Shown here in pieces: positions 1-20,631 of a stretch of 35,575 nt of DNA. The stretch is from a virus (taxonomy: Duplodnaviria > Heunggongvirae > Uroviricota > Caudoviricetes): the IMG/VR virus record IMGVR_UViG_2579779007_000007; one strand, given 5' to 3'. How positions within the stretch are numbered: position 1 is the first letter of the stretch; each line of letters opens with the position of its first letter. A model generated the notes under the pieces. The model saw only the letters and a list, made by a program, of their open reading frames with translations. It had not been told where the DNA came from and did not search any database. The position numbers and the translations under genes are program-made.

Positions 1-21
1 ATGCGAGAGACAGTCGAAATT

Positions 22-351
22 ATGCGTTATCCCGTCACTCTTACACCCGCGCCGGAAGGCGGTTATATGGTTTCTTTTGTGGATATCCCTGAAGCGTTGA
101 CCCAGGGCGAAACTGTCGCTGAAGCGATGGAAGCGGCAAAAGATGCTTTACTGACCGCATTTGATTTTTATTTTGAAGATAACGAGCTTATCCCGTTACC
201 TTCGCCATTAAATAGTCATGATCACTTTATTGAAGTACCTTTGAGCGTCGCCTCTAAGGTATTGCTGTTAAATGCTTTTTTACAGTCAGAAATCACTCAG
301 CAAGAGTTAGCCAGGCGAATTGGCAACCCGAATGTAGTCAACCCAAAATAA
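22..351 (+). CDS. hicB: HicB-family antitoxin, N-terminal domain only; ORF ends after 8 unrelated codons, apparently disrupted by the AT-rich element
   Basis: Translation MRYPVTLTPAPEGGYMVSFVDIPEALTQGETVAEAMEAAKDALL... matches the enterobacterial HicB N-domain as recalled. Start of an Xre-like HTH (ITQQELARRIG) is cut off near nt 331. GC drops from about 50% to about 35% after nt 340. Confidence 0.6.
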   Translation: MRYPVTLTPAPEGGYMVSFVDIPEALTQGETVAEAMEAAKDALLTAFDFYFEDNELIPLPSPLNSHDHFIEVPLSVASKVLLLNAFLQSEITQQELARRIGNPNVVNPK

Positions 352-583
352 CTAAAAATTTTGCAATAAAAAGCCCCATCTCAAGGACAAGGCTTAGAAA
401 TCAACTAATTAACATAGTTTCCAGATCAAAGGGGTTATAATGAAATCCATAAAAGGTGATCTGTTAGCTGGGTGCTGTATATCTAAAATGTTACTTAATT
501 AATATCGTTCTGGTGGTTAGCTTTCATCGCATCCCACCATTTTTGAGTAATCTTCATGCTATTGAATTGCATCATTTCACCTC

Positions 584-1363
584 TTACTCTGCGTCTACCA
601 TGTCACATGCAAATTGAGTGTGTTTATATTCAGAATCAAATTTTGGTTCAATTACTTCAAGACGCATGTCACCTTTTTTGCTTACCCAGATGTTATAAGT
701 GTTAACACGTCCAATAGCATCCTGTTTGGATTTACCTTCCATTGCGTTTGGATTCTCTTTAGATGGCTTGAGACTTGATTTATAAACATCATACTTGTCG
801 GAATACACAAAAGATACAGGAACATCGTCTACCATTTTGATCTTAAGTTTACCGCCGTTATTATCAAAAGTTTTGTTTCCGTAGAGTTTATCTTTTACAG
901 CTTCTGTTTCCTCACCATCGATAACTTTCCATGTAAATTTTGTAGTACATGCGTAAATCGCGGTAACATTCAGTTTCTTTACTTCTTCCTGTTTCGGTTG
1001 TTCTTCTTCAATCTTCGCAGAAGTCTCTGAATCGCTCTCTGACGCGGTTTCTTCTTTAGATAATACATTCATCAAGTTTTGGATTTGAGCGTTGTATACA
1101 GCCTCCAGTGGCTGAATCTGCCCGATATTGATCATTGTATCACGAACAGTTTTATTCCAGTTGCGTTGCTCTTGTTTAAGAGACGGATCAATCTTAACAG
1201 CCTTAACATATACTTCATGAAGTTTAGAATCCAGTGCGGAGATTGACTCATTAGCACAAATAAACTTCTCTGATTTGGTTATAGCCTTAGTGCAATCAAA
1301 GGACGCAGCATCAGCACCGAAAGCAGTAGCAGAAAGCACGATAGCAGCGATAATGTTTTTCAT
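584..1363 (-). CDS. secreted protein with N-terminal DUF1311 (LprI-like, lysozyme-inhibitor family) domain and an unknown C-terminal domain
   Basis: 259 aa ORF with signal peptide MKNIIAAIVLSATAFGADAA. Motif C..A.T..E..IC...L..LD..L...Y followed by QR.W...RD is typical of DUF1311. RBS AGAGG upstream. Confidence 0.5.
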   Translation of the reverse strand: MKNIIAAIVLSATAFGADAASFDCTKAITKSEKFICANESISALDSKLHEVYVKAVKIDPSLKQEQRNWNKTVRDTMINIGQIQPLEAVYNAQIQNLMNVLSKEETASESDSETSAKIEEEQPKQEEVKKLNVTAIYACTTKFTWKVIDGEETEAVKDKLYGNKTFDNNGGKLKIKMVDDVPVSFVYSDKYDVYKSSLKPSKENPNAMEGKSKQDAIGRVNTYNIWVSKKGDMRLEVIEPKFDSEYKHTQFACDMVDAE

Positions 1364-1721
1364 TTTATACCTCTTTTGGTATGGACTGACTTTTAGATGC
1401 TTACTTTATTGATTTTTGATATTTTTTCAATTATTGGGATGAGATTTAGTAATTAAATTAAGAAATTAATGCTTGACAAATTAAAAAGGTACTGTTCCAC
1501 GGATGAAATAAAGGGAGTTTTCGGCACCCCGGTATTTGATACGCGTGTGAGATTTTAAAACGTGATCAGTGCAGTCCTAGCGCGGTTGCTACGCGACTAT
1601 TAACCCACTTCCTAGCCCTTACCATTACTGGATCTTTCCCTTCGTTAGAATGCGATTTAGGCGCTTAGATTGTGCGTAAAACCAATAAATAAAATTACGC
1701 AAATTTAATGGAGGATAACCA

Positions 1722-2276
1722 ATGAAAGAAGAATTAACCCTTACAGAAATTTCCCGTTTATACGGCTATTCATTGAATGGTGGCGCTAAGCGATGGATAG
1801 AAAGGGGATTGCCATTTAACACCAATACCCGCCGCGTGCCAGCCAAAGAAGGAACAGAATGGGTCTTGAAAAATATTATCAACCCGCTTAAACAAACTTC
1901 TATCAAAGAACAAATCGATGTAGAGAAATTACGCCGTGAACGTGCTTTGGCAGATGCAGCCGAACGAGAGAACCAGGAAAAAATGAATCTCCTGATTCCT
2001 GTCGGTTATGTAGAACAGGAACTAGCGGAATATTGCGGGAAAGTGAAGCAGACTATTTTGCAGATCGCCACAATTGACGTTTTGGAAGTTCTCGAATCTG
2101 CCACCGACCAGAAAACATTGAAGAACAAATTAAGGGAGATCATCGAGCGTCGTTTAAATGAAGTAGGGGACTTGTTCGAAAATGCTGATTTGGGAGAAGA
2201 CGAGGAAGAAGAATTACCATTAATGGATGAACCGGAAGAAGAACCAGAAGAAGACGATGAATTTGATGTGTCTTAA
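1722..2276 (+). CDS. lambda Nu1-like terminase small subunit (putative)
   Basis: 184 aa. N-terminal winged-HTH-like segment, central EKLRRE..AL.DA segment resembling lambda Nu1, acidic C-terminus. RBS GGAGG. Pairs by family with the gpA-type large terminase at 8493. Confidence 0.5.
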   Translation: MKEELTLTEISRLYGYSLNGGAKRWIERGLPFNTNTRRVPAKEGTEWVLKNIINPLKQTSIKEQIDVEKLRRERALADAAERENQEKMNLLIPVGYVEQELAEYCGKVKQTILQIATIDVLEVLESATDQKTLKNKLREIIERRLNEVGDLFENADLGEDEEEELPLMDEPEEEPEEDDEFDVS

Positions 2277-2327
2277 AATTTCTATACTAAATACATATGT
2301 GAAAGATGTTGAGCTGGTCAACGTCTA

Positions 2328-2363
2328 CGGGGGAGAACATCCCCCGCTTAACCTTTTTCTTAT
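2328..2363 (+). terminator. putative intrinsic terminator after the Nu1-like gene
   Basis: CGGGGG-agaacat-CCCCCG hairpin followed by a T-rich tract that begins 7 nt after the stem. Confidence 0.35.
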
Positions 2364-2377
2364 TTGAGGATTTACCT

Positions 2378-2479
2378 ATGGTTGAATTTTTGATTTATCT
2401 TACTGTAGGATTAACTATCGTATATTCACTGGCACATATTGGCATTTCTGCTGTGTGTAACGCTTTCAAGTATCATTAA
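2378..2479 (+). CDS. small hydrophobic peptide (33 aa, one predicted TM helix)
   Basis: Manual translation MVEFLIYLTVGLTIVYSLAHIGISAVCNAFKYH, with GAGGA about 8 nt upstream. Below the 60-aa ORF-track cutoff. Confidence 0.3.
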   Translation: MVEFLIYLTVGLTIVYSLAHIGISAVCNAFKYH

Positions 2480-2532
2480 TTAAATCGATGAATTGAACTA
2501 TAGATGATGGTCGTGTTCAAAGAGGATTATCT

Positions 2533-2706
2533 ATGGATCTTTTTGTCTACTTTGCTACTCTGCTGTTTTTGACTATCGTCGCTGGCATTAAATTGATTTT
2601 TATATCGCTGGTGGTGTTTTTCAAATTTCTAATCGGTACGCCTTACGGCTGGGTATGCTTCTTTTTGTTTATTCTTTTTAGTTGCTGTAAAAAGGATACT
2701 AAATAA
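2533..2706 (+). CDS. small membrane protein (57 aa, two predicted TM helices)
   Basis: Manual translation MDLFVYFATLLFLTIVAGIKLIFISLVVFFKFLIGTPYGWVCFFLFILFSCCKKDTK, with AGAGGA 7 nt upstream. Confidence 0.35.
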   Translation: MDLFVYFATLLFLTIVAGIKLIFISLVVFFKFLIGTPYGWVCFFLFILFSCCKKDTK

Positions 2707-2864
2707 TAGTGTAATCTGCCTTTTCTCCTTATGGTTATTAACAGGGGATCTTCTTTGAGGATTCCCGATTAAAAGCCATAAAACACACTCCAGTACAGTG
2801 TTTTCATAGTCAGTGATCTATACAACACAAAAACATAACAAGTATAGATTGAGTATTAATCCTC

Positions 2865-2890
2865 CCGCCCCTTCGGGGCGGTTATTTTTC
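2865..2890 (+). terminator. intrinsic terminator
   Basis: CCGCCCC-ttcg-GGGGCGG hairpin followed by TTATTTTT. Confidence 0.6.
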
Positions 2891-2966
2891 TGGCTTTAAA
2901 GAATAATGTAGCATTATGTTCATTATAACCTCATCTTTGTTGTGCAAACCTAACCTAAACTTACTA

Positions 2967-2992
2967 GGGACTCTTCGGAGTCCCTTTTTTTT
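2967..2992 (+). terminator. intrinsic terminator, possibly bidirectional
   Basis: GGGACTC-ttcg-GAGTCCC hairpin followed by eight T. It abuts the stop codon of the minus-strand gene 2991..3233. Confidence 0.6.
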
Positions 2993-3233
2993 ATGCAACA
3001 ATTCGAAGTGTAAGTTTCTTATGTTGTGTAGGTTTAGTTTCATTTCGCCACTCAGGGAATACATGATCCATCATAACCGCATTAGTCTCATCAATCAGCT
3101 TTAAGGACTTTCTCAACGCCTTATTATCAGCTTTAAGAGTTTTAATCTCTGATTCCATCGCTACCATTCTTTCTTTCATTTTGGTAATTTCTAACATCAG
3201 ATTACCCAGAAATTCTTTGTTTTGATTCATCAT
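2991..3233 (-). CDS. hypothetical coiled-coil protein (80 aa)
   Basis: ORF with RBS GAGGGGTGAA. Heptad-rich sequence. Lies 16 nt downstream of the 333-aa gene on the same strand. Confidence 0.45.
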   Translation of the reverse strand: MMNQNKEFLGNLMLEITKMKERMVAMESEIKTLKADNKALRKSLKLIDETNAVMMDHVFPEWRNETKPTQHKKLTLRIVA

Positions 3234-3248
3234 AGATTCACCCCTCTA

Positions 3249-4250
3249 TTAAGCTGCGTATGCGTAGGCGCTGTAGTTGGTGTCGTAGATAGCGTCATGC
3301 AGTGCCATCTGTGCTTCGCGGATCTCGTCTTCGTTTACTTCAATCTCTTCTTGTTCTTCTTCGGTATCTTCCCAAGTGGTTTTGAATTTAGCCATAAAGT
3401 TATTGCGCAGGGATTCAAAGTTAGTAACAGGTGCGGATTTTTCTTCAACCGGAACTACTACCGGATCAGCTTCTTTCTGTTCTTCCTGTTCTACTTTTTC
3501 ACCATTACCCCAGCGATAGTTAAGGAGTTCTTCCAGTTCTTCATCAATGGATTTTTCTTCAACTGCTTCAACTTCAACCGCTGCTACTTCGAAAGTGGTT
3601 TCCTGTGCTGCCAGTTCAGCTTTCAGAGATGCGTTTTCAGCTTCCAGTTCAGCAATGCGTGCTTTCAGTGCTTCAACTTCGGAAGATTCAACCACTGCAA
3701 CTTCTTCTTTAACTTCTTCAACTACTACCGGAGCAACTTCTTTCTGTGCTTCTTTTTTGCAGAAGAAGGAGGAAGTAACCTGTAATGCGTGGTTGTAGAA
3801 GGAACCGCCTTTAGCGGTGTTAACAGTACCAGAAACATCCTTTACAGTGGATTCGGTAGCAACAGTACGGAAGCGTTTTGCGACTTCCTGGGTCTCTACG
3901 CCGTATTCGTTACGCTTGCTCTTGTGATGCATTACAGCACGGAAGCCGGAAGCAGTTTTAACAACAGCCAGATAGTAAGTTTCATCGGCTTTAACAGCAC
4001 GAGCGAAGCAATAAACGGATTCACCTTCTACCAGTGTAGGTTTAACGTGACGTTTGTCGAAACGGTTAGTGATCTGCCATTCAGCACCGTCTTTGATGCC
4101 AGCATTCTGACGCATTTCGGTCAGAGTCTTACCGGATACTACTTCAAAGGATTTGTCTTGTTTGCTTGCTTTACCTTCCATGACGGTAATGTTCAGTTTG
4201 CCGTTGGATTTAATAAACAGGTTGAAGGTGATGCGCTTAGAATTTTTCAT
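3249..4250 (-). CDS. hypothetical protein: N-terminal globular domain, central coiled coil (EALKARIAELEAENASLKAEL), acidic C-terminal region
   Basis: 333 aa ORF with RBS GGAG. Coding-like composition. No family recognised. Confidence 0.6.
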   Translation of the reverse strand: MKNSKRITFNLFIKSNGKLNITVMEGKASKQDKSFEVVSGKTLTEMRQNAGIKDGAEWQITNRFDKRHVKPTLVEGESVYCFARAVKADETYYLAVVKTASGFRAVMHHKSKRNEYGVETQEVAKRFRTVATESTVKDVSGTVNTAKGGSFYNHALQVTSSFFCKKEAQKEVAPVVVEEVKEEVAVVESSEVEALKARIAELEAENASLKAELAAQETTFEVAAVEVEAVEEKSIDEELEELLNYRWGNGEKVEQEEQKEADPVVVPVEEKSAPVTNFESLRNNFMAKFKTTWEDTEEEQEEIEVNEDEIREAQMALHDAIYDTNYSAYAYAA

Positions 4251-4295
4251 TTATAAATACTCCTGAATGCTGTGTTAGTTTTAATTGTTCATATC

Positions 4296-4330
4296 AAAAG
4301 CCTCCTTGCGCCAACAGGGAGGCTTTTTTA
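4296..4330. terminator. bidirectional terminator-like hairpin between the 60-aa and 333-aa genes
   Basis: AAAA-GCCTCC-ttgcgccaacag-GGAGGC-TTTTTT: an A-run before and a T-run after the stem. Confidence 0.4.
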
Positions 4331-4367
4331 TTTTTAAAGCCATCATATAATTCTCAGTGAAAGGTTA

Positions 4368-4550
4368 TTACCAGACCTCGGCGGTAATCTTTACTTTAAT
4401 ATCATACTTCTTTAAGAGTTTGTGGAAGGTTGATTGATCAATACCTTCACCTTTAAACCATTCACCCATCACTACATCAGGTGTCAGTTCAAAATAACGC
4501 TTTGCCATTTCTAAAACGATTTCACGAGTGAACTTAACAGGTCGTGCCAT
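4368..4550 (-). CDS. small HTH DNA-binding protein (60 aa)
   Basis: Strong RBS AGGAGGA. Pattern FTREIVLEMAKRY...GIDQSTFHKLLKKY resembles IS/phage-type HTH. Confidence 0.5.
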   Translation of the reverse strand: MARPVKFTREIVLEMAKRYFELTPDVVMGEWFKGEGIDQSTFHKLLKKYDIKVKITAEVW

Positions 4551-4907
4551 CTTATATCCTCCTAAATCTGGAATAATGATTTCTTAAAAAAGAGCTTTTC
4601 GCTCTGAACAATTCTATTTATAAAATGTTTTTCGAAAAACCCTGTAAAACCACTGTATATCCGATCAGTGGGAGCACGAATTGCTAAAGAGAAGATTAAT
4701 AATTAATCAATTCGTACATTATTCAATCGAATAAGCACTGTATGTTTAGCCAGTTCTGTATGAATTAACAGTGAGTCAGGGGATTTTCAGAAGTGAACAA
4801 TCATTTCATGCATGTATTTATACACGAAAAAATCTTGCGTATCATCAATATGGGGATTGTTTCGAAAATTTCAACCCCTACCAACGAGAAAAAGCATAAA
4901 ATAATCC

Positions 4908-4921
4908 TTGACAGTTGTCAA
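4908..4921. promoter_or_regulatory. palindrome TTGACA-gt-TGTCAA (back-to-back -35-like hexamers or operator)
   Basis: Perfect 6-bp arms. A leftward -10 candidate TATGCT lies 17 bp away on the minus strand, positioned to drive the 4550-to-2991 cassette. Confidence 0.3.
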
Positions 4922-4946
4922 TACACTTGATCTAAGCGAGAAATGA

Positions 4947-4969
4947 CTATCAAAATTTTTGTGTGAAAA
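4947..4969. repeat. direct repeat copy 1: CTATCAAAATTTTTG-TGTGAAAA
   Basis: Near-identical 22-23 bp copy at 5096..5117. A DnaA-box-like TTATCAACC sits between them at 4983..4991. Confidence 0.5.
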
Positions 4970-5095
4970 TGGCGGATAACGATTATCAACCTTTATAACC
5001 TATTATAGCACGGCGACCTTTTGATAATTCTTTTTAAATCATGCATTTACGGCGGTTTTTGGTGATTTTCTGGTTAAATAATATACAAGAATTTT

Positions 5096-5117
5096 CTATC
5101 AAAATTTTTGATGAAAA
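5096..5117. repeat. direct repeat copy 2: CTATCAAAATTTTTG-ATGAAAA
   Basis: See copy 1. This copy directly abuts the iteron array. Confidence 0.5.
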
Positions 5118-5118
5118 A

Positions 5119-5239
5119 CCTACACTACAAACCTACGCTTTAAAGGGATTGGCCTACACTACACTAGCCAGTAAACCTACACTATAACACCCTCAAACCT
5201 ACACTATGAAACCTACACACCTACACTAACCCTACACTT
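5119..5239. repeat. iteron array: about 8 direct copies of CCTACAC(T/G)(A/T) in about 120 bp
   Basis: Copies start at 5119, 5132 (variant), 5153, 5176, 5198, 5212, 5220 and 5231. Several spacings are 21-23 bp. Preceded by an AT-rich tract, inside a 1.27-kb stretch with no ORF of 60 aa or more. Confidence 0.7.
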
Positions 5240-5584
5240 CAATCTCATAAGTGTATGATCTTGAAAGACATTTCACCCCACAGACCATAGAATATAAAAT
5301 TCGAACTAACGTTCTCCTTTTTGCTCGTTTTCTCTCACTACGTTCAAGAAAGATCTCGCAAAAAGAATACGGCGTAGCCGTGCGCGAAGCGCCCATCAAC
5401 ACCTTCTAAGACCTGCAAGCAGGATTCGAAAGGGATTGGATAGTTCGCTTCGCTCACGTTCACGCCTACGGCGTTCACTCGCTTTTGAAAGGATTTTCTT
5501 AGAAAGGGATTTAATACTAGTTACTAACTGATTCTAGTAAACGAACGAAGTGAGTAACAATCACTTTCTAGAAAGGTATTGGTT

Positions 5585-5613
5585 ATCCCTTCGGGATTGC
5601 AACCTTCGGTTGC
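5585..5613 (+). other. two tandem GC-stem hairpins with TTC(G) loops (candidate structured RNA element)
   Basis: ATCCC-ttc-GGGAT immediately followed by GCAACC-ttc-GGTTGC. No clean T-run follows. Confidence 0.35.
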
Positions 5614-5817
5614 TAAATTGCTTCCTGATTATTATTTCTCCAAAAGAAAGATTCTTATATTCTAAAGATACTTCTTCGTTTTGATGATGATTTAATCAAA
5701 CCATGAAGGAGGGCTTTAGCCCGACTGAATACAATCACCTTTCATAATAACAAGAATTTTCTCTTTATAAATAATAGTGAACTTACTTGATTCACTTTCT
5801 TTTAGAGGATTTCCACT

Positions 5818-6285
5818 ATGAACCATAAAATGACTACCACTACTCCTTTTATCCTTCTGGGTCTGGATTCTGATAGCTTCCACAATGACAAGTTAATGAA
5901 GATGTTCCGTGAACGTGGTTATAACATCCTTTTCAACTCTGATGAATCCCATTTCTCTAGTGCATGGTATGCGTTTTACCGTAATAAGAAGCCGACCATT
6001 GTAGTTAACTGCTTCACCGATGAAGAACGCTTAAAGTACCAGGATCTACCAGCAATTATTGTCCGTGATGATCTGCCGTTTCAAGTCCGTTCCGGTGACA
6101 TTGATCTGGGTAGCTTCGTTACTGTCTATGAACTGGATGAAGCAATGTTTAACTACGGCAAAGAAACCGCTCAGGAAGCCCCAGAAGAAGATGAACAAGA
6201 CGAAGATGACGACGACTACGCACCAATCTGTTTTTCTTCTCAGAATGGCTTCTACGGTTACGACGAAGGCTTAGATATGCTGTAA
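5818..6285 (+). CDS. hypothetical acidic protein (155 aa)
   Basis: RBS AGAGGA. N-terminal alpha/beta-like segment (PFILLGLDSDSF...), then a strongly acidic stretch EEDEQDEDDDDY. Confidence 0.55.
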   Translation: MNHKMTTTTPFILLGLDSDSFHNDKLMKMFRERGYNILFNSDESHFSSAWYAFYRNKKPTIVVNCFTDEERLKYQDLPAIIVRDDLPFQVRSGDIDLGSFVTVYELDEAMFNYGKETAQEAPEEDEQDEDDDDYAPICFSSQNGFYGYDEGLDML

Positions 6286-6320
6286 GTTAGGTCAACCCTT
6301 TGGCGTCTTGTCAAGGGGTA

Positions 6321-6349
6321 TTGACAAAAATTTCTGACTTTTTTATGAT
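6321..6349 (+). promoter_or_regulatory. sigma70-like promoter TTGACA-17 bp-TATGAT
   Basis: Consensus -35, 17-bp spacer, 5/6 match at -10. An inverted TTGTCAA lies just upstream (6309..6315). Positioned to drive the 6408 ORF and the Rha gene. Confidence 0.5.
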
Positions 6350-6407
6350 TGTCGCACTTGACAACTTTAAACCTATTTGACCTAGATTTGTAAATGGGAT
6401 GTTAATT

Positions 6408-6554
6408 ATGAACACTACTAAGAAAATTGATGGACGTAAAACCCCGAACCGCAAACCGTGGACCCCAAACCTGAATTTCTCAATGGTTGACTTCCATGAA
6501 CGCCAGCGTCGCATTCAAGAAGAAATTGATCGCGCGATTGCTGAATCTAAATGA
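6408..6554 (+). CDS. small basic protein (48 aa), hypothetical
   Basis: Manual translation MNTTKKIDGRKTPNRKPWTPNLNFSMVDFHERQRRIQEEIDRAIAESK. Its start region resembles the Rha start (ttaattatgaaYact...). Confidence 0.3.
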   Translation: MNTTKKIDGRKTPNRKPWTPNLNFSMVDFHERQRRIQEEIDRAIAESK

Positions 6555-6580
6555 GATAAAAACTTCTTATAAATAAAATT

Positions 6581-6602
6581 GTTCCGGTGATGCTGCCGGA
6601 AC
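6581..6602 (+). promoter_or_regulatory. perfect hairpin GTTCCGG-tgatgctg-CCGGAAC just upstream of the Rha RBS
   Basis: 7-bp perfect stem with no T-run after it, so possibly an attenuator, processing site or protein-binding palindrome. Confidence 0.3.
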
Positions 6603-6651
6603 TAGGAGGATCAATATCATTATCGCAAAACCGTTTAAGGGGAATTTAATT

Positions 6652-7458
6652 ATGAATACTGTTACTGCTATGAATACTACTAAAACCGCTTCCGTGTCTC
6701 TGGTTGTTGATAACACCAAACCGCTGACCATGTCTTCTCGTCAGATCGCTGAATTTACCGGAAAGAAACACTTTCACGTAAAACGCGACATTCGCGAAAT
6801 GCTGATTACCTTAGAATTAGATGAATCCAAATTTGGATGCATCTTTTTTGATCAATATGGACGCGAGCAAACAGAATATCACTTGAATGAAGAACTGACT
6901 CTGACTCTTGTCACTGGTTACAATATCCAGATGCGAAACGCGGTTATTCAGGAATGGAAGCGACTGAAAGAAGAAAATGAAAAACTTCGCTCTACTCCGG
7001 TTAACCCGTATGCAGACTTTGAAGAAACCGACTGGATCGAACTGGCGTTAAAGAAAACTCGCGAGAACAAGCAACTGATTACTCTACATCATCGCAAATC
7101 CGTAGATAGCCATTCAATGACGCGTTTGTTAGGTGCTAAAAAGGGCGCTACGAAGGTTAAAGAAGCACTGACGGCCTTACGTACTGCCGGATACATTGAG
7201 CGCGTCTATGATGAAAATAACAAGCCGTGTGGGTATGTTGCTAATGATTCCGCGATACCGTTTTGCAGCATGAACGCTCACTATCAACTTTCTTTCACTG
7301 TTGATGTGCTTCCGGTGCTGGTTGAATTGGGTGTTCTTGAAGAAGAACAAAAAGCAGCTTTGACACTGCCTAAACCGAATAACACGATCATGATTCAGAA
7401 TAAAGCGACTATCATGATTCGTCAGAATGTTGGATCGCTAGAACACTTCGGACTGTAA
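6652..7458 (+). CDS. rha: Rha-family phage regulatory protein (antirepressor-like)
   Basis: 268 aa. N-terminal SSRQIAEFTGKKHFHVKRDIREM matches the Rha-domain signature. RBS AAGGGG. Confidence 0.7.
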   Translation: MNTVTAMNTTKTASVSLVVDNTKPLTMSSRQIAEFTGKKHFHVKRDIREMLITLELDESKFGCIFFDQYGREQTEYHLNEELTLTLVTGYNIQMRNAVIQEWKRLKEENEKLRSTPVNPYADFEETDWIELALKKTRENKQLITLHHRKSVDSHSMTRLLGAKKGATKVKEALTALRTAGYIERVYDENNKPCGYVANDSAIPFCSMNAHYQLSFTVDVLPVLVELGVLEEEQKAALTLPKPNNTIMIQNKATIMIRQNVGSLEHFGL

Positions 7459-7466
7459 TAATTTTT

Positions 7467-7491
7467 GCCCCTGAATTTCAGGGGCTTTTTT
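7467..7491 (+). terminator. intrinsic terminator after rha
   Basis: GCCCCTGAA-(a)-TTCAGGGGC followed by TTTTTT. Confidence 0.7.
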
Positions 7492-7503
7492 GTATCTGTA
7501 GGT

Positions 7504-7532
7504 ATAAAAAAAGCCAACCCCGAAGGATTGGC
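7504..7532 (-). terminator. intrinsic terminator for the minus-strand 85-aa gene
   Basis: On the minus strand: GGCCAATCC-ttcg-GGGTTGGC followed by seven U. Convergent with the rha terminator. Confidence 0.5.
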
Positions 7533-7540
7533 CTAGAGAA

Positions 7541-7798
7541 TCAAATTCCTGTTGCTTCTACCATTTCACCATCAACCTGAACAAAGAATTTCAAATCAAC
7601 TTTATGAAGGGATTTGTATAGCTGGGCTATGGATAAGCCATGCTCATTTAATACCCGCTCTTTGTTCTCTTTACCTTTCGGTGCTTGATAGTACGCTTTT
7701 ACAATCGCTGCCAGTTGTTCACGATTAAAACGGGCAGGGCGACCGCGAGTAGCTTTAGTAGTCATAGTCATTTTCTCCAAATTAAAGTGAATGTTCAC
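7541..7798 (-). CDS. small DNA-binding protein (85 aa), HTH-like
   Basis: TRGRPARFNREQLAAIVKAYY...GLSIAQLYKSL pattern. Starts 2 nt after the stop of the upstream 201-aa gene. Confidence 0.5.
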   Translation of the reverse strand: MNIHFNLEKMTMTTKATRGRPARFNREQLAAIVKAYYQAPKGKENKERVLNEHGLSIAQLYKSLHKVDLKFFVQVDGEMVEATGI

Positions 7799-7800
7799 CT

Positions 7801-8406
7801 TTATTTAGAGGACTTACATTTTATCGGAAAAAGTTCTCCATCGTCAACCGACATAAAGAACTCTGCCTTAATCCCGTACTTCTTCAACCGTGAATAATAT
7901 GTACCCCGACTAATATCAACCTTGCGCAGCACTTCGAAGAACTCTTTAGGATTCCTGTAATAGTGGCTATATCGCACGTTAGCGAGTTCTACAAACAATT
8001 CCCTTGTATCACCATAGCCTTTCTTGAAAGCCACGTTACGATAGCGTGTAATGGCATGATTCAATCTCTTCTGTTTAAGCACTTCCCTGATCGGCTTCCA
8101 CTGCAACCGATAGATAGGACCGTCATCAATGCGATAATAACGCTTGATATCAAAATCAAACCAATCTCGGACTCTCCGAAACTCTGTATGTGATGTTCTA
8201 TGCTTCTTAAAGAAGTTGTGAACGTCTCTATAGCCATTATCACGGTAAAATTCTATTAAAATCTCTTTCGCTTCCTCACGGCTAAACCCAGATGTTGTGT
8301 AATCGGTCTTTAAGTGCTTATGTTTTACTGGCAAACGATATTCATGATCGGTACAACAAGACAAGGCTAATTCTACTTCATCTCTTTGTTGCTGATTAAT
8401 TAGCAT
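7801..8406 (-). CDS. hypothetical basic protein (201 aa) with C-terminal HTH-like segment
   Basis: Rich in R/K/Y. C-terminal ISRGTYYSRLKKYG is HTH-like. Divergent from the large terminase gene. Confidence 0.55.
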   Translation of the reverse strand: MLINQQQRDEVELALSCCTDHEYRLPVKHKHLKTDYTTSGFSREEAKEILIEFYRDNGYRDVHNFFKKHRTSHTEFRRVRDWFDFDIKRYYRIDDGPIYRLQWKPIREVLKQKRLNHAITRYRNVAFKKGYGDTRELFVELANVRYSHYYRNPKEFFEVLRKVDISRGTYYSRLKKYGIKAEFFMSVDDGELFPIKCKSSK

Positions 8407-8492
8407 ACACCCTCCTTAAATCTTAATACCGTATTTATCAAAATATCAACAATTTAATAAATACCTTCATATTTCGTAATGAGGGTAATTAC

Positions 8493-10400
8493 ATGAAACT
8501 GATTTCTAATAAGGCAAAATTAAAAAAGATTCTCAGAAATGCAGCCAAATATATTACGCCACCGCCTAAACTCCTTCCATCGGAATGGTGCGAAGCGAAT
8601 CTAACGCTAGTCGATGGTCCTCGTGCTGGGGATAAAGTTAAATTGCTGTCATTTCAGAAAGGCATGATTGATGCTCCTTTCCTTGAGAAGAAAAAGAAGT
8701 ACGTTTTTTGTACGAGTGCGCAGATCGGAAAGACGACCATCATGTCAGGGATCATGTTTAACCAGATGGCAAACGATCCGTGTAATATCATTATCGGGCA
8801 AAGTACCGCTAAAGAAGTGGCTATGTACTTGAATACTAAGATCCGTCCTTCTATTGAAGCATGTCCGGCATTACAGGAAGTGGTAACAGATAAGAATGAT
8901 CGTAATGCGGTAAACAACAATAACCAGATTCAGCTAAAAACAAACCATTTCCTTTACATGGTTTCTTTGACCAGTCCTTCAAGTTTGCGCGGGCGTACTG
9001 CCAAGTTAGGGATTGTAGACGAATGCGACGCAGCAACAATCACCGAAGAAGGTTGCCCGGTGGCACTAACTGCAAACCGTTTAACTACCTTTGGTGATGA
9101 AGCTCGATTGATTGTTTCTAGTACCCCGACCAATAAGCTGGGAATCATTAACCAGCAATGGTTATCAAGTGATATGCGTATGTTTTTTGTTCCGTGTCCT
9201 CATTGCGGGGAACACCAGGTGATCGAGTGGGAAAACGTTCAATTTGAATGGCGTAACATTGATGGTAAGAACTTACCCGATCCTGATACCGCTCGTTATA
9301 TTTGCCCCCACTGTAAGAACGCATGGACAGAAGGGGAACGAATCAGGGCAGTAGCGCAAGGCGAGTGGAGAGCAACCCGTGAAAGTGAAGTAGCAGGATT
9401 CTGGATCAGTCGTCTGTATTCACCTTTCAGCACGATCCGCGCTTGTGTGGTTGATTTTAGTCATGCGTGGCAATCCTTTGATTTACAATCCTTTTTTAAC
9501 ACCGTGTTAGGCAAGGTATACGACGATCAGGACACGGCAGTAGAAGCAAATGAACTGGAACAACTCAAAACAGATGTTTCTATCGAGAATATCCCTGATG
9601 ACGTGATTTTCTTGTGTGCGGGTACTGACCAGCAATTAGATCGCGCAGAAACTACGATCATGGGCGTGGCAAAGGATAAGATTTATATTCTGGATCACCG
9701 CAGCTTTTACGATCATAACTGTGAACGATATGAATCACCTGTATGGGATAGATTAATCAACTTCCATAAAACCAAATTTACTACTGTATCGGGTGATCGT
9801 GTTCCTATGCTCGCCAGCTTCCTTGATACATCGAACGGTCGATTCACTCAAGCTGGATACCGTATTTGCGGCAAGTGGAAGAACTTACACGCTATCAAAG
9901 GTAGTTCTGCTGGTAACGCTCCGATCATTCCGGTTAAACCTACCCGCACAGGTGGTCATGAATTGCTTATGCTGGGCGTTAACGTTGGGAAATCCGCTGT
10001 TCGTGAAATGCTGGTTAGAAACCTGAAAGATAATCCTCATATTGGCTTAGAAATATCAGAAACCATTCCTGATGATTATCTCGATCAGCTTTTGAGTGAA
10101 TCCATCAAGCGTACTACTACTGGCGTGCGTTGGGTGAAAAATCCAGGTAGTACCCGAAACGAGGCTCTCGACTGTCTGGTTTATAGCTATGCTGCTTCTC
10201 GCTACGTTCTTTCAAAAATGTCATGGGATAAACTCATTGCAATGAAAGACAGCTTAAACCGTGTTGTCGAAGAATCCGTAGAAGCTCCTAAATCGCAATC
10301 TGACGAGCAAATCGAAGAAAATAAGCCAATCACACGACCACAACGTAAAAACATCGCCAGACGCCCAAATAGAGGCCGTAGCTGGGTAACATCGTTCTAA
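8493..10400 (+). CDS. terL: terminase large subunit, lambda gpA family
   Basis: 635 aa. Recalled gpA-family blocks: [45 protein letters not shown]. Confidence 0.9.
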
Positions 10401-10472: not shown

Positions 10473-10967
10473 ATGAGTTTAGAACTAATTCCCTTAGTAA
10501 TTCGTAAAGGTGAAAAAATCACGCTGGCGAATGAAGAGGGTGTAACAATTCAGGTAGGAAATAGTAAAGGTATCATTTATCAGGTTGATGATACTCCGGC
10601 TAATCATGAGATTAAAACCTTAGATTTTGCCGAAGGTAAATATACCATCGTAACCACTTTGGAAGAAGAACTGGTATCAATGCAGGAATTAACTGTTTTA
10701 CCAGTATTCGCCAAACAATCCAAAAAAGAATATCTGCGGGAAACTATCGCCTTAATCGAGCAAGTTATTTTCGCCCGTTTATCTGGGGACGAAGCCGCAT
10801 TATCTCAAATGACAGTGAAAGGGAATACTTTCGCCTATGAGTCATTAGGTGTTCTCCAGCAATTAAAGACTGATTATGAACGTCAGTTATCAAAATTAAT
10901 TCAAGCCGAACGACGTAAACAGGGAATTAGCCCGATTAAAAATATTAAAGTACGTCTTACGCGATAA
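10473..10967 (+). CDS. hypothetical head-associated protein (164 aa)
   Basis: Sits between terminase and portal, with the AAGGGGTAAT-type RBS common to the late genes. Confidence 0.55.
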   Translation: MSLELIPLVIRKGEKITLANEEGVTIQVGNSKGIIYQVDDTPANHEIKTLDFAEGKYTIVTTLEEELVSMQELTVLPVFAKQSKKEYLRETIALIEQVIFARLSGDEAALSQMTVKGNTFAYESLGVLQQLKTDYERQLSKLIQAERRKQGISPIKNIKVRLTR

Positions 10968-10977
10968 GGGGTAAATC

Positions 10978-12489
10978 ATGTTTAATCTTTTTCGACGCAA
11001 AAAGGCGGTAGAAACTCCAGTTAAAACTAATCACCGCCAACAACAACCAAAAATTTTCATCGACAAACAAGTAGAAAAATTTCAGAAAGATTTGTCTAAG
11101 CGTTCTTTGGGCTTAGTCGGTGATCGAATTGATGGGCAGCTTCAACAAGATACTATCACCGGAACGTTCAATAAGGCTCTCAAATCGAACGGTAAGCGCC
11201 TTTATGATCAGGGTCGTACTCTGGCCTTAAACACTTCCGTAGGCAGTCGATACACGCAATACATCACCGATATGGTGGTAGGTACTGGCCTAGATCCGAA
11301 GCCGTCAATCGTTAAATCAAATGGCAAACTTGATAGCGCACTGAATAAGCAGATCGAGAATGCTTTCTGGAAGTGGGCGCAGAATGCTAAACGCTTCTCT
11401 CGTAACGGTCGCTTTAACTTCCGTGAATTGCTGGTAATGGCTGAACGTGAGCGCGTTATGGGTGGTGAGTGTTTCATCGTTTTAACTAAAGAAAACAATG
11501 AGTTAAATGTTTCTATCCTGTCTGCTGATAAGTGCGACTGGACTCTCAACCGTGAAGTGAGCAAAGAACGTGCGATATATCAAGGTGTGGAGTATGCCGT
11601 AGAAACGATGAAGCCCGTGGCATACTGGTTTCGTAAAGTCAACCTACTGACTCAGACCTACACTGGTGATAACTATCGCGTCGATGCTTCGCAAGTATGC
11701 CATTATTATCAACCGCTTACCGCCGAATCCCTGCGTGGTGTGACTGACTTCCTGCCAGTGATTAAGGATATCGCACATCAAGATGCATTCCGCGAAACTG
11801 CGATCATCCAGAAACGCATTGCAGCTAGCTCTATGGGCTTTATCGAACGTCCGAAAGATTCTGGTGACGATTTTGATACTGGTGAAGAGGATGAACAATA
11901 TCAAGCGCCGGAAGTAGTACAGGACTTTGCACCGGGTACTATTCAGGAATTGCCGGAAGGGGCAACGATTAAGTCAATTCAGAGCGCCCAAAGTGGCGAT
12001 GACTTTAACAGCTTCAATGATGCGATGTTTACTAGCGTATCAATGGGCTTAGGCGTGTTTAAACAGGGCTTAACTGGTGATACCAGCCAGATCAACTACA
12101 GCGCAGCCCGCTACGGCGAATTGCTTCAACGCACACGAGTTAAAGCACTGCAAAACAAATTAATTGAAACAGTGGTATTGCCAATTTTTGAAGCATATCT
12201 ACGCCATTATTCCGCGCGTGGTATTGTTCCGATTCGTATTACTGCAATTCCGCATATTATCGACAACACTACTATTATTCGTCCGCGTTTTGAATCCGTC
12301 GATCCTATTAAAGACGTAAACGCTGATATTGCTTTAATTGATAAAGGACTTAAATCACGTACTGCCGTTATATTAGAACGTGGTGATGATCCTGAAAAAG
12401 TATTCTCAGAGATTCAAGCCGAAAAGAGCGCACTAAATATTATCGTTGATGGTGAGGGTGAAGAAAAAAATTCCCCAGCCGATCCCTAA
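10978..12489 (+). CDS. portal protein (lambda gpB-like)
   Basis: 503 aa, position after terminase, C-terminal block resembling lambda-type portals. Confidence 0.8.
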   Translation: MFNLFRRKKAVETPVKTNHRQQQPKIFIDKQVEKFQKDLSKRSLGLVGDRIDGQLQQDTITGTFNKALKSNGKRLYDQGRTLALNTSVGSRYTQYITDMVVGTGLDPKPSIVKSNGKLDSALNKQIENAFWKWAQNAKRFSRNGRFNFRELLVMAERERVMGGECFIVLTKENNELNVSILSADKCDWTLNREVSKERAIYQGVEYAVETMKPVAYWFRKVNLLTQTYTGDNYRVDASQVCHYYQPLTAESLRGVTDFLPVIKDIAHQDAFRETAIIQKRIAASSMGFIERPKDSGDDFDTGEEDEQYQAPEVVQDFAPGTIQELPEGATIKSIQSAQSGDDFNSFNDAMFTSVSMGLGVFKQGLTGDTSQINYSAARYGELLQRTRVKALQNKLIETVVLPIFEAYLRHYSARGIVPIRITAIPHIIDNTTIIRPRFESVDPIKDVNADIALIDKGLKSRTAVILERGDDPEKVFSEIQAEKSALNIIVDGEGEEKNSPADP

Positions 12490-15448: not shown

Positions 15449-16282
15449 ATGAATATTACACAAGATAACTTAGATATTTTCACTGGATCACATGTTGAAG
15501 TGTCGATCTCTAACCAGATAGACAATCAGGTCGACTTTTTCGATCCTAGCTTTAGTTCTATGGAGAACATCGCAGCATTCCCTACGCTAACCGAATCCAC
15601 AGAGATAGAAACTCTGGAAGAGTACGATCAGGACGCTACGGGGAAACTTGCTGGTTATCGTAGACTGGAACCGACAACACTCACATTAAACCGTGTTCTT
15701 GACGATGAACATCAAGCAATGTTGATGAAAGCGGTAGAGGATAAAACACCTTTACGCTTCCGTATGTTCTATGTTGTGAACTCTGGCTATAGTGCTGCTA
15801 ACACTGGTTACTATGTCATCTATGACGCTTATGTCACTAGTCACAAAACCCGTGGCGCAGATAACAAAGCTGTAACACTGGAATTTAAACTTGAACCAGA
15901 TGGCGGGATTTTGGCAAGGGGTATAGCGACCGAGGGAAAAATTCTGCGACAAGGGGATTATGGCGTAGGTGCAGGTGTACATCCATTCACGGGTCCAATT
16001 GATAGTGATGCTTTAGCAGGAAACCGTTTCGTAACTTACAAGGGAACTGCTAGCGGTAATCCATACTCAGCCGACACATCATTAATTCACCTTCAAGCTA
16101 ATGAGCATGGCGCATGGCAATTAACCTGTAATACTTCCGGTGCACCACGTTTACGTGTCCGAAATATTCAGGAAAACGGTCGCTCTGAATGGATCAAGGT
16201 ATATTCCACCAATGAGAAACCGACACCTAGCGAAATTGGCGCAGTGGCTAAGACTGACCGGATCGATTTCGGCGAATACTAA
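15449..16282 (+). CDS. tail-tube-like protein with C-terminal fibre-like extension (paralog of the 20030 gene)
   Basis: 277 aa. N-terminus (NLDIFTGSHV...GKL...LTLT) aligns with the 156-aa protein at 20030. C-terminus carries KPTPSEIGA, also present in the tail fibre. Confidence 0.55.
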   Translation: MNITQDNLDIFTGSHVEVSISNQIDNQVDFFDPSFSSMENIAAFPTLTESTEIETLEEYDQDATGKLAGYRRLEPTTLTLNRVLDDEHQAMLMKAVEDKTPLRFRMFYVVNSGYSAANTGYYVIYDAYVTSHKTRGADNKAVTLEFKLEPDGGILARGIATEGKILRQGDYGVGAGVHPFTGPIDSDALAGNRFVTYKGTASGNPYSADTSLIHLQANEHGAWQLTCNTSGAPRLRVRNIQENGRSEWIKVYSTNEKPTPSEIGAVAKTDRIDFGEY

Positions 16283-16364: not shown

Positions 16365-19300
16365 ATGCAATCAATCCAATTTAAACGCACACAAACGGCT
16401 GGTAAAAAGCCGACGCCGGAACAATTATCACAGGGTGAGATCGCCTTACAACTGGCGGACCATGTGATTTACACCAAAGACAAAAATAATAACGTAGTCC
16501 AAATTAGTGTTTCTCCAGAAAAACACGCTGAACTTAACACTAAAGTAGACAATAACAAAACTAGCACTGACCGTGTTATTGCTTCCAACAAACAAGAGGC
16601 CGCTAATAATCTGGCTAGTGCTAAAGCTGAACTGAATCAGACTATTACCACGAAAGATACAGCGACCAATAAGCGCATTGATGCTACCAACACCACTGTT
16701 AGTAACTTAACCCAGACAGTTACGGCAAATAAAACCGATGCCGACACTAAGATCAATAACCTTACGGGGACCGTATCTGCGAATAAGACCGCAATTGAAA
16801 GAACCGTTGCCGCAAACAAATCTGATGCAGATAGCAAACATGCAGCTTTAACGAAAACGGTCACTGACAATAACACCGCGATTAACAACAAGGTTAATAC
16901 CACTAACACCAACGTTAGCAACTTAACTAAAACTGTTACTGCAAATAAAACCGATGCAGATAACAAAATTTCTAGCTTAACTAGCGCGGTTGCAGCTAAC
17001 AAGACAGCGATCGAAAAGACTGTTTCCGACAATAAGAAAGACGCGGATACTAAGATTACCAATCTTACTGGCACTGTTAATAGCAACCATACCGCAATTA
17101 ACAACAAGGTAGACCAGAATAAATCTTCTACTGATGCCGCAATTGCAGCCGCTAACAAACGAATTGATGGTATTGAAGGTAGCAATGATGCTCTTTACAT
17201 CAAGAAGAATACCAATACTAAGCATGGTGGGTATCTGTTAAGCAAGACAGCTAACTATCTGGAAGACCAGACATCACGAGATCTTAACTACTTTGGTGCT
17301 TTCCGTACCAATGGTCAAGATGGACTCATGGATCTAACTCTTAACGTTCCTCACTCTTCCGGTAAAGCGCACGGTCGCGGATTTACTTTCCGTTATGCGT
17401 CTGGTGGATCTCGTGTTGAAACCTATGGTTTTGATAGAGAAGGACAGAAGAACTTTAGCTATAAGATGTATCACGAAGGTGATAAACCGACTCCTGCTGA
17501 AATTGGCGCATATACCAAAGGCGAAATTGATAAGATGTTTATTAAAAATGTCACAATGTCTGTTCCTTCTGGTAGTGAATCCCGTGCTTATTTCAAGATT
17601 GCTACGGCTACGATCCCACAAAATGGTCGTATGGTAATGCTTCGTATCTTCGGTGGTAATGGTTATAACGTTAACTCCTATGATCAGGTTGATTTCCTTG
17701 AAATTGTTATCCGTAGTGGTAACGATAGACCTAAAGGTGTTAGTGTTGCTGCATATCGTCGAAATGCTCTTAACGTTCATCAAGTATTTGCGGTTAATAC
17801 TTCCGGTGATAACTACGACATTTACGTTAACTACGGTCGTTATACTGATAACGTTATTGTCGAATATGGTAAGACTAGCGGTGTTTCACTGACTGTTCAT
17901 GACACCCCAGATATGACTAACGTTAAGCCGTCTACTGGTGTTACAGATGGACGTGTTATTACAATGTTCAATACCGAAAACAAGGCCGGAACGTTGATGT
18001 TTGATAATAACGGTCAGGGAACATATGATATTGTCAGTTTGAATAACGATTCAGGTACTGGTAAAAAATATCTGCGTAAATTCCGTAGTAAAGCCGCAGA
18101 AACAATCTGGCATGAAACTGTTCAAGGTAACGTATATCGTTTAGCGACTGGCACTACCGATTCTAGCGAAGTTCTACGAATCACTGGTCGCACTATGTAT
18201 ACTGGTAAAGCTGTTTTTGATGCCGGATCTAATACTATTCGTATGCAGCGACCGAATGGTCAAAGTAACTATTTGGAATATTGGGATAACCGTAACGGTG
18301 CAAATAAACGTCAAGGTTGGATCGGTTATGGAAATGCCGATACTAACGCTATGCAGATGTATAACGATAGCGGTACTAACAATATTGGCTTAGAACAAAG
18401 CGGTCAAATCTCTCTGAATACTGGATCTACTAAAGTAGTTTATACCAACGGCGAGTATGTATCTGCTAACTCAAATGCATTCCGTATGATTTACGGTAAC
18501 TATGGTGCATTCTGGCGTAATGATGGTCAAAACGTATATTTTCTGTCTACTGCCGAAAATGATAAATTTGGTGGTTGGAACGGCTATCGTCCATTCATTT
18601 ACAATCTGGGTAGCGGTAATGTTACTTTGGGTGGTGATGGTAACGAAGGTGCATTAGTCTTAGAACGTGCAAGTCGTGCAGCTCGTTTTGCTGGAAACGC
18701 TTTCATCAAAGGTCAACATTTAACACTTGATGCTGGTGCTGGACAATCCCGCGACTATTTCCGTTTTAACCATTGGGGTGATAGCAATAACGCTCGCGAC
18801 AACATTCTATATCTCGAAGACAGCAAAGGACGCCATTTCAGCACCGAACGTAATATGGCTACAGGTGCATTAAAAGCATACTTCTTAGGAGATCTTGAAG
18901 TTGCTGGTCAAATGCGATGGGGTAAGAATACCGGACAATCTAGCTTCAATATTCGTGCATGGGGTAATGATACTCGTAAACAAGTATTAGAATGCGCAGA
19001 TGAAAGCGGCTGGCATTTCTACACACAGCGTGCTGGCGGTCCTGATACTACCGCAATCGAGTTTAGCGTAAACGGTAAAATTAACGCTCCCCGACTGTCT
19101 ATTAGTCAGGATGCAACCATTCCTAAGTTTAATAGCGGTTTTGGTGTTGGTGTTGCTAACGGATTGGGTGGAAATTCTATTGTTTTAGGCGATAGTGATA
19201 CTGGATTTAAACAAAACGGTGATGGTGTCCTTGATACCTACGCTAATAACGTTAATGTTGTTCGCCATACGTCAGGCGGTGTTACATTTAACCGTCGTGT

Positions 19301-19973: not shown

Positions 19974-19980
19974 TAAAAGT

Positions 19981-19999
19981 CGGGGGACTAGTTCCCCCG
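19981..19999 (+). other. stem-loop after the fibre gene (weak terminator candidate)
   Basis: CGGGGGA-ctagt-TCCCCCG with no clean T-run. Confidence 0.3.
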
Positions 20000-20029
20000 T
20001 AATAACAATTTTAATTAAGGGGTAATTCT

Positions 20030-20626: not shown

Positions 20627-20631
20627 TTTTA

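Follow-up and report, generated by a model that had tools for sequence, protein, structure and literature searches.

In bacteriophage lambda, cos, Nu1 and A are contiguous and the small-terminase gene Nu1 overlaps A, whose product, gpA, binds Nu1 through its N-terminal segment. The small-subunit gene (terS) also directly precedes or overlaps the large-subunit gene (terL) in Escherichia phage ep3 (Jilinvirus), Pseudomonas phage Persinger and a prophage of Rouxiella sp. T17, and annotation pipelines and phage biologists assume terS to lie directly upstream of terL. A loose precedent for another layout is offered by P2 and 186, in which the genes for the large subunit, P, and the small subunit, M, are non-adjacent and belong to different transcription units. 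Here we describe the terminase genes of IMG/VR record IMGVR_UViG_2579779007_000007, a stretch of 35,575 bp from a tailed phage (Caudoviricetes), referred to below as the window, which holds a prophage of Escherichia coli. Its Nu1-family gene and its gpA-family gene lie in separate, terminated transcription units, and this arrangement is conserved among relatives. No description of the element, of a prophage integrated in hicB or of an unlinked Nu1/gpA pair was found in the literature searched.

Comparison with described terminase loci

The terminase proteins of the window resemble those of lambda. TerS is homologous to Nu1 over the winged helix-turn-helix (HTH) and the helical region that follows it, TerL carries both gpA Pfam domains and an N-terminus that can be aligned with that of gpA, and terL is followed by a head–tail joining gene and a lambda-type portal gene. 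Unlike the contiguous lambda genes, terS is placed 6.2 kb upstream of terL in a terminated unit of its own, and an acidic disordered tail stands where Nu1 has its C-terminal gpA-binding segment, of which no counterpart was detected. Phages ep3 and Persinger and the Rouxiella prophage share the TerL family (28–38% identity) and the order terL, head–tail joining gene, portal; the Rouxiella TerS is also a PHROG 57 protein, 35% identical to that of the window. Their terS–terL pairs differ in having no intervening replication and regulation module, and in ep3 and Persinger a lysis cassette lies just upstream of the pair. In P2, only capsid genes lie between the terminase genes, which are divergently oriented inside the late region and belong to other protein families, whereas in the window it is a probable early region that separates terS from terL.

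The features that carry the comparison are as follows (aa, amino acids).

1722–2276, + strand: Nu1-family small terminase (TerS-like, 184 aa), assigned from PHROG 57, family-profile hhalign and an AlphaFold2 (AF2) model
2865–2881 (seven GC pairs, then a T run) and 2966–2985, + strand: two hairpins resembling intrinsic terminators, which close off terS as a transcription unit
8493–10400, + strand: gpA-type large terminase TerL, 635 aa (PF05876 and PF20454; phrog_15)
10473–12489, + strand: head–tail joining protein (164 aa; phrog_5774, 8e-9) and lambda-type portal (503 aa; phrog_21, 1.6e-66; PF05136)

A Nu1-family protein and a gpA-type large terminase

A preliminary description of the window, made from its sequence, had placed a Nu1-like gene at 1722–2276 and a gpA-type terL at 8493, and both identifications were confirmed. 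The 184-aa product, whose open reading frame (ORF) has a GGAGG ribosome-binding site 8 nt upstream, matched the PHROG 57 profile ‘terminase small subunit’ with E = 1.5e-11, residues 2–169 aligning with profile positions 10–190 of 199. Lambda Nu1 itself belongs to PHROG 57 (1.3e-76). Profile searches, which had been proposed for this protein, supported its place in the Nu1 family. With a profile of 15 close homologues, hhalign returned lambda Nu1 at a probability of 95.4%. Among 1.84 billion representative proteins, 210 relatives were picked out by a profile search; the full-length ones numbered 68, and Pfam Phage_Nu1 (PF07471) was recognized in 39 of these and DUF1441 in 15. As a 68-member family profile, they matched lambda Nu1 at 99.1% (E = 5.6e-19), with residues 4–128 on Nu1 2–144. 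Judged by these profiles, membership of the Nu1 family is transitive, by way of the relatives that fall in PF07471.

In the AF2 model of the 184-aa protein (pLDDT 72), a winged HTH at residues 1–40 is followed by a long helix (41–89), a helical bundle (94–154) and a disordered acidic tail (158–184). An N-terminal winged HTH domain homologous to Nu1 residues 1–68 is present, as judged by hhalign and by the modeled helix–helix–strand at 7–40. A helical self-association region is also present after it, as indicated by the alignment up to Nu1 144, by the PHROG 57 match over 2–169 and by the long helices predicted at 41–154. Weak sequence matches were obtained to the Protein Data Bank (PDB) TerS entries 1j9i, 6hn7 and 7lw0. 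The ORFs are intact and residues are conserved across the 184-aa family, which argues for a functional gene. The label given to it by the Prokaryotic Genome Annotation Pipeline (PGAP) in nearly all genomes is ‘hypothetical’. The earlier statement that the window has only one Nu1-like gene also stood: no second small-terminase candidate was found among the other products scanned, which covered most ORFs of at least 90 aa.

A tblastn search of the phage collection with the full 184-aa protein gave no match. This was a false negative; when the acidic tail was left off, ‘Escherichia phage DCP80’ was found at 31% identity. Low-complexity tails can thus mask real matches.

TerL combines PF05876 (GpA_ATPase, 1.9e-55) and PF20454 (GpA_nuclease, 2.7e-44) in a single polypeptide and matches phrog_15 at 8.4e-133. 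Its N-terminus is basic, and its first 40 or so residues can be aligned with the N-terminus of lambda gpA. The separation of about 6.2 kb noted earlier measures 6,216 bp, with both genes on the same strand, terminator-like hairpins after terS and about 11 small or unannotated genes on both strands in between. Terminator-like sites in the region numbered 18, against 6.7 expected. A terS immediately before terL and co-transcribed with it is therefore not what is found here; among the loci compared, that layout was seen only in the Rouxiella outgroup.

Conservation and origin of the separation

The window was compared with 45 related loci from E. coli, Salmonella, Proteus columbae, IMG/VR and read-archive assemblies. 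In all 45, the terS-like gene and terL are on the same strand and 5.7–8.6 kb apart. The split is kept down to a TerS identity of 51–57% and occurs at no fewer than three integration sites, namely hicB, codB and a site next to a PHP-domain gene. A more divergent contig (L053), with a TerS 39% identical to that of the window, has genes resembling those for the 333-aa and 60-aa proteins of the interval downstream of terS on the opposite strand. Since the gap is present in every locus, in several genera and at several integration sites, a recent insertion is not supported. The split is an unusual but conserved layout and not a disrupted operon.

The outgroup was informative as to the origin of this layout. 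In the Rouxiella sp. T17 prophage, the TerS homologue (35% identity; PHROG 57, 1e-19) is encoded directly upstream of, and overlapping, the TerL homologue (38.5%), and homologues of the head–tail joining and portal proteins follow TerL. This adjacency links the 184-aa family to the gpA-type terminase of the window. Because the distant relative has terS abutting terL, it also suggests that the separation in the lineage of the window arose later than the adjacent layout. The possibility, raised in the preliminary description, that relatives might show the split as a conserved ancestral arrangement with defined functions was borne out as to conservation; the outgroup suggests a later origin, and functions can be assigned to the interval by inference.

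A separated gene was also seen in the ‘Escherichia phage DCP80’ record (GenBank PQ671644; L044), in which the 31%-identical TerS-like gene comes after the lysis genes, at the far end of a siphovirus segment of about 26 kb from its TerL. The record appears chimeric, with T4-like genes, among them motA, ndd and two inverted copies of rIIA, joined to about 26 kb of siphovirus DNA in which the structural genes, the lysis genes and the terS-like gene lie.

Pairing of TerS with TerL

Among the E. coli loci, near-identical TerS proteins (88–97%) are paired with two types of TerL that are about 57% identical to each other and about 63% identical over their first 40 residues, so that TerS and TerL show no clean co-variation. 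The Salmonella loci L015 and L016 have identical TerS; their TerL proteins are 90% identical over residues 1–40 and 97% over the last 61 residues, with 59% in the ATPase/nuclease core. This pair had seemed to support co-variation of TerS with the TerL N-terminus. The idea was abandoned, as the E. coli loci disagree and linkage to flanking DNA accounts for the rest.

TerL itself is mosaic. The core of the L016 protein resembles the Proteus type, and the E. coli relatives carry TerL types about 92% and about 57% identical, with conserved C-termini.

Function of the 184-aa protein

The 184-aa protein is probably the real small terminase of the phage, a divergent member of the lambda Nu1 family, with the interval serving as the phage's own early module. 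It is likely to be the terminase partner because it is the sole candidate, because the TerL N-terminus can be aligned with that of gpA and because the Rouxiella homologues are adjacent.

Several observations weigh against this assignment. The 184-aa protein itself falls below every Pfam and NCBIfam threshold. No homology was detected past residue 128 or so (about Nu1 144), so that nothing recognizable corresponds to the C-terminal part with which Nu1 binds gpA. Structure searches of the TerS-like model against PDB and BFVD gave weak matches of MerR, Xis, BldC and RdfS types and one weak TerS, none of them significant; with results this weak and mixed, the fold fails to tell TerS from excisionase-like proteins. 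The gene is near attP, the usual place of excision factors. The pairing of nearly the same TerS with two TerL types counts here too, as does the distance of TerL from the phage collection, in which its best match is 42.7% and the lineage has no cultured phage.

Some of these points would also fit a Nu1/MerR/Xis-type fold put to another use, either as the recombination directionality factor that serves the serine integrase or in regulating transcription, with packaging specificity coming from an unrecognized protein or from TerL alone. The 184-aa gene is the first conserved gene beside the attachment site, the N-terminal domain of Nu1 itself also matches excisionase and MerR-like PHROGs, the non-significant fold matches are of such types, and one and the same protein accompanies two divergent types of TerL. 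Nevertheless, the Nu1 homology spans the helical oligomerization region besides the HTH (residues 4–128), the protein has 184 aa as against about 50–120 aa for excisionases, 39 of the 68 family members are Pfam Phage_Nu1 proteins, and the Rouxiella homologue occupies the canonical terS position, overlapping terL. As a source of specificity, the tandem HTH-like 201-aa protein next to terL might be considered, since it and an 85-aa protein are DNA-binding-like, directly upstream of terL and conserved in the lineage, but the 201-aa gene is on the opposite strand and its product has no TerS-family match. Such a use, which the preliminary description had offered as one of two explanations, is on balance unlikely, given the Rouxiella homologue directly before TerL and the want of any other TerS candidate.

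A dual role for this unlinked protein, whose gene forms a unit of its own beside the attachment site and has a conserved, cos-like GC island upstream, is a further reading, in which it would be both the DNA-recognition subunit of terminase and a directionality factor or regulator of the serine integrase, thereby coupling excision to packaging; it is harder still to credit. If it were true, an unlinked terS/cos cassette could be exchanged apart from terL, and the same TerS is already found with two TerL types about 57% identical.

It is very improbable that the prophage is decaying or domesticated and that its gene order reflects scrambling of no functional meaning. The element has no cultured representative, no recognized repressor or replication gene was found in it, and the E. 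coli copy in strain 06-00048 appears truncated on the right. Against this, its head, tail, lysis and integrase gene set is complete with intact long ORFs, and the same order recurs across genera and insertion sites, implying ongoing mobility.

The other explanation first proposed, that a contiguous Nu1–A operon was split in this element by a recent insertion of accessory or foreign DNA, is the least probable of all: the adjacent arrangement in Rouxiella, ep3 and Persinger means that a rearrangement happened at some point, and parts of the interval are mosaic or exchangeable (the 333-aa gene, Rha and small ORFs), but all 45 loci have the gap, even where TerS identity falls to 51%, the 39%-identity relative already has 333-aa-like and 60-aa-like genes downstream of terS, the GC content of the interval (33–45%) matches the rest of the element, and the interval houses the only candidate replication and regulation functions of the element.

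With the 184-aa protein taken as the small terminase, terS is transcribed on its own from the left, att-proximal end of the prophage, and terL heads the late structural operon 6.2 kb downstream. The two subunits, made from separate transcripts, would then come together in trans as the holoenzyme. If lambda is a guide, the winged HTH of TerS would attach to a cosB-like site and TerL would be brought in for cutting at cos, a step from homology to function that we infer; the basic N-terminal helix of TerL may be the docking place for the acidic tail of TerS.

Provided that the phage is active, the subunits of a lambda-type terminase can function together when they are encoded in separate transcription units, which may differ in the timing of their expression. 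It would also follow that cos need not lie beside terL, which bears on searches for small terminases and pac/cos sites and on the prediction of packaging type and transduction potential. The conserved unlinked layout is a caution for annotation and packaging-site prediction and overturns no mechanism.

Gene content of the interval

The interval between terS and terL contains, in addition to its small genes, a gene-free stretch of 1,267 bp (4551–5817), and its GC content is like that of the rest of the element. Its genes are listed below.

2306–2479 and 2533–2706, + strand: two small ORFs for 57-aa hydrophobic proteins downstream of terS; no family match; absent from many relatives
2991–3233, − strand: 80-aa coiled-coil protein with weak matches of coiled-coil type only; shares a transcript with the 333-aa protein; L015 and L016 have counterparts in this position
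3249–4250, − strand: 333-aa protein; N-terminal domain of about 165 aa joined by an acidic coiled-coil linker to a short C-terminal domain; candidate repeat-binding replication initiator
4368–4550, − strand: 60-aa HTH-like protein, conserved in all relatives; paralogous to the 85-aa protein and to the 201-aa protein's modules
5818–6285, + strand: 155-aa protein ending in an acidic tail; 32–100% identity among relatives; undetected in a single locus
6652–7458, + strand: Rha/antirepressor-family regulator (PF09669, 8.9e-13; phrog_8235, 5.9e-19); replaceable
7541–8406, − strand: 85-aa (PGAP: 74 aa; 7541–7798) and 201-aa (7801–8406) proteins, divergent from terL

A core set was found in nearly all relatives, one or two members being undetected in a few divergent loci. 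It consists of terS, a minus-strand protein of about 310–390 aa, the 60-aa protein, a gene-free stretch of 1.3–1.5 kb, the 155-aa protein, and the 74/85-aa and 201-aa proteins facing terL. The variable genes are Rha (absent from Proteus L013), the two 57-aa hydrophobic ORFs, both of which are dispensable, the coiled-coil protein and an LprI-like gene near the left end; the 333-aa gene is also exchangeable.

The 60-, 85- and 201-aa proteins share a module of three helices and a β-hairpin that follows an (R)GRP/ARP-x-x-F motif. As weak paralogues, the 60-aa protein matched the 85-aa protein with E = 1.5e-4 and residues 134–187 of the 201-aa protein with E = 0.004. The AF2 model of the 201-aa protein (pTM 0.63) has two such modules in tandem, and its comparison with the PDB gave no significant match to a solved structure. 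The family seems to be restricted to this phage lineage, with no annotated relative.

Taken together, the repeat arrays, the conserved operator-like region, Rha and the HTH-like proteins make the interval read as an early module: most likely it serves replication and regulation of the phage itself and is not cargo of foreign origin. Its proposed organization comprises a leftward operon for the 60-aa HTH-like, 333-aa and 80-aa coiled-coil proteins, a rightward operon for the 155-aa protein, a 51-aa protein and Rha, and the leftward pair of HTH-like proteins facing terL. Between the first two would lie a control region of 1.27 kb, in which direct repeats form a probable origin recognized by the 333-aa protein, together with conserved operator-like sites and hairpins. 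Such a compact, unannotated early region, with its candidate initiator/origin pair and conserved hairpins, is a place in which to seek replication functions and lysis–lysogeny control.

Repeat array and candidate initiator

Iteron-type origins are known from lambda (ori and O, with ori inside the O gene), P1 and plasmid Rep–iteron systems. The gene-free stretch of the window holds an array of comparable architecture, and arrays lie at the same place in relatives.

5116–5242, + strand: array of 6–7 direct repeats (AAA)CCTACACTA in one orientation with 11/22-bp phasing; candidate replication origin
L016 13303–13480, L015 13316–13490, L014 6785–6925 and L013 12921–13220: repeat arrays of relatives

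Matches to CCTACACTA numbered 14 against 4.6 expected, clustered at 5116–5242 with spacings of 22–23 or 11 bp. The DNA beside the repeats is AT-rich (23–30% GC at 5040–5129). The arrays of the relatives have other sequences and 5–13 copies: the unit is TTGCCCCTGAAA in L015, CCCCGGATTCCAC in L014 and ATCCCTAG in Proteus (L013), where 13 copies are set at multiples of 11 bp. L016 has the CCTACACTA repeat and the 333-aa protein type in common with the window (56% identity); in L015, L014 and L013 the repeats are of other sequence and the adjacent protein is unrelated or only very distantly related. On comparison of these sequences, the repeats co-vary with the adjacent protein of about 310–390 aa. 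All these proteins are organized alike: the N-terminal domain varies, an acidic coiled-coil comes next, and the C-terminus is short and usually ends in Ala-Ala.

Because the repeat sequence co-varies with the adjacent protein, the array and the 333-aa protein may form an iteron-type origin with its initiator, a candidate new specificity module. The likeness to known iteron-type origins lies in the cluster of 6–13 short direct repeats in one orientation, their 11/22-bp phasing, the AT-rich neighbor and the co-varying neighboring gene. The differences are that the repeats here are outside the gene, that the neighboring protein matches no known initiator family and that no DnaA boxes were found. 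The last two speak against an origin: the 333-aa protein fell in no Pfam, PHROG or NCBIfam family and its homologue search gave only near-identical ‘hypothetical’ proteins, and no DnaA box was found near the repeats. The case for a replication origin is one of repeat architecture only.

The array was also considered as a set of cosB/TerS sites. This was ruled out, because L015 and L016 have identical TerS and different repeats.

Control region and candidate cos sites

Three stretches of non-coding DNA are conserved among the relatives.

1470–1721: conserved non-coding DNA upstream of terS; cos candidate 1 and/or putative terS promoter
5369–5817, + strand: conserved non-coding control region with hairpins, operator-like sites, and the promoter and leader of the 155-aa gene; cos candidate 2
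8407–8492: divergent control region of 86 bp between the 201-aa gene and terL; 82% mean column identity

The right half of the gene-free stretch (5380–5817) is 70–90% conserved among 32 distinct sequences. Four TAGAAAGGGATT operator-like sites, one palindrome among them, lie at 5426–5580. A long imperfect hairpin occupies 5369–5477; its folding z-score is −3.3 for one strand and −5.0 for the other. Tandem cUNCGg hairpins follow at 5586–5615, the tetraloops being UUCG, UGCG and UACG in relatives, and in Salmonella, L014 and L042 the stems consist of other sequences that are again complementary. At 5709–5724, the pairs of a third hairpin, a small one, change from GGGC/GCCC to GTGC/GCAC. Since the stems change between relatives with pairing kept, a structured plus-strand RNA or leader upstream of the 155-aa gene is suggested. 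A search of positions 1–9000 against Rfam gave no family at E ≤ 1.

The stretch at 8407–8492 is conserved across E. coli, Salmonella, L014 and Proteus to a degree that exceeds most coding DNA of the element, which suggests that a late promoter or a regulator site is under tight constraint here.

Two places are candidates for cos, the hairpin region at 5369–5480 and a GC-rich island upstream of terS. The island (1500–1620, 47–57% GC) lies 100–220 bp upstream of the gene and is flanked by DNA of 17–27% GC. Conserved blocks of the surrounding 1470–1721 are found in Salmonella, in L014 and partly in Proteus, and identity among the E. coli loci is 80–100%.

Other indications of cos were considered and set aside. 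The lambda cohesive end finishes with the 8 nt GGCGACCT, which are also present at 5012–5019; no relative conserves them, and the match was taken as chance. Contig ends could not serve as a proxy, as the IMG/VR entries are predicted prophages whose limits were set at the edge of a gene or of host DNA. One Logan contig of 35.5 kb ends 388 bp upstream of terS, yet other contigs read through this point, and a conserved 16-mer is not at contig ends.

The first 1.25 kb of the DCP80 record is non-coding and has several exact motifs of 13–15 nt in common with window positions 5444–5637 (e.g. TTCGCTTCGCTCA, which occurs twice). Homology of the gene-free region to this DNA upstream of the DCP80 TerL was considered on the strength of these clustered matches and rejected; nhmmer with a 32-sequence profile found nothing significant.

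The prophage and its integration site

The window starts inside host hicB, and the upstream host context, tehAB-ydcL-benE-ydcN-ydcP-yncJ-hicA, is that of E. coli. In the complete genome NZ_CP119011 as annotated by PGAP, hicB fragments flank the element, one labeled ‘missing C-terminus’ and the other ‘missing N-terminus’, with about 35.2 kb of low-GC DNA (about 41%) between them. The features of the ends are as follows.

1–351, + strand: 5′ part of host hicB (antitoxin), cut by integration; left prophage junction; PGAP ‘missing C-terminus’
584–1363, − strand: LprI-like secreted protein (PF07007, 3.2e-5; phrog_14799, 8.5e-114)
32395–34089, − strand: large serine recombinase (phrog_95, 2.9e-58)
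beyond 35575, just past the right end: second hicB fragment, ‘missing N-terminus’ (L012 9492–9608)

The late region is of siphovirus type. Its head side encodes the gpA-type TerL, the head–tail joining protein, the lambda-type portal, a fused protease/major capsid protein and a head closure protein, and its tail and lysis side encodes major tail proteins, a tape measure, distal tail and tip proteins and an endolysin. The window is essentially one complete, compact (about 35.2 kb) temperate siphovirus-type prophage, placed within hicB by a large serine recombinase.

The phage collection gave no nucleotide match to the interval or to the whole left arm. At least 80% of the left 12 kb is present in about 11 complete E. 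coli genomes. The index of the collection lists 53 blocks with exactly this 184-aa protein, and homologues are known from E. coli, Shigella, Salmonella and Proteus. The lineage is thus widespread, though uncultured.

The insertion leaves hicA intact, and the retained 5′ part of hicB runs on into about 10 phage-derived codons (…ARRIGNPNVVNPK). Relative to K-12 HicB, the C-terminal DNA-binding part would be taken off and the toxin-neutralizing N-terminal domain kept; hicAB may for this reason be deregulated by integration.

The LprI-like gene is variable att-proximal cargo (a moron) outside the packaging system, and in relatives its place is occupied by other, unrelated small genes. Probable secreted or lipoprotein cargo is found near both ends of the prophage, the LprI-like protein of the lysozyme-inhibitor family on the left (584–1363) and a 139-aa protein with a signal peptide on the right (34138–34557).

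The siphovirus-type tail module contains, within 16365–21181, a T4 gp37-like distal subunit of a long tail fiber (1,202 aa; phrog_1699, 9.7e-127) and a gp38-like adhesin (phrog_1121, 2.9e-35). The tail fiber gene is flanked by two paralogous major-tail-protein genes (15449–16282 and 20030–20500), and the adhesin gene follows the second.

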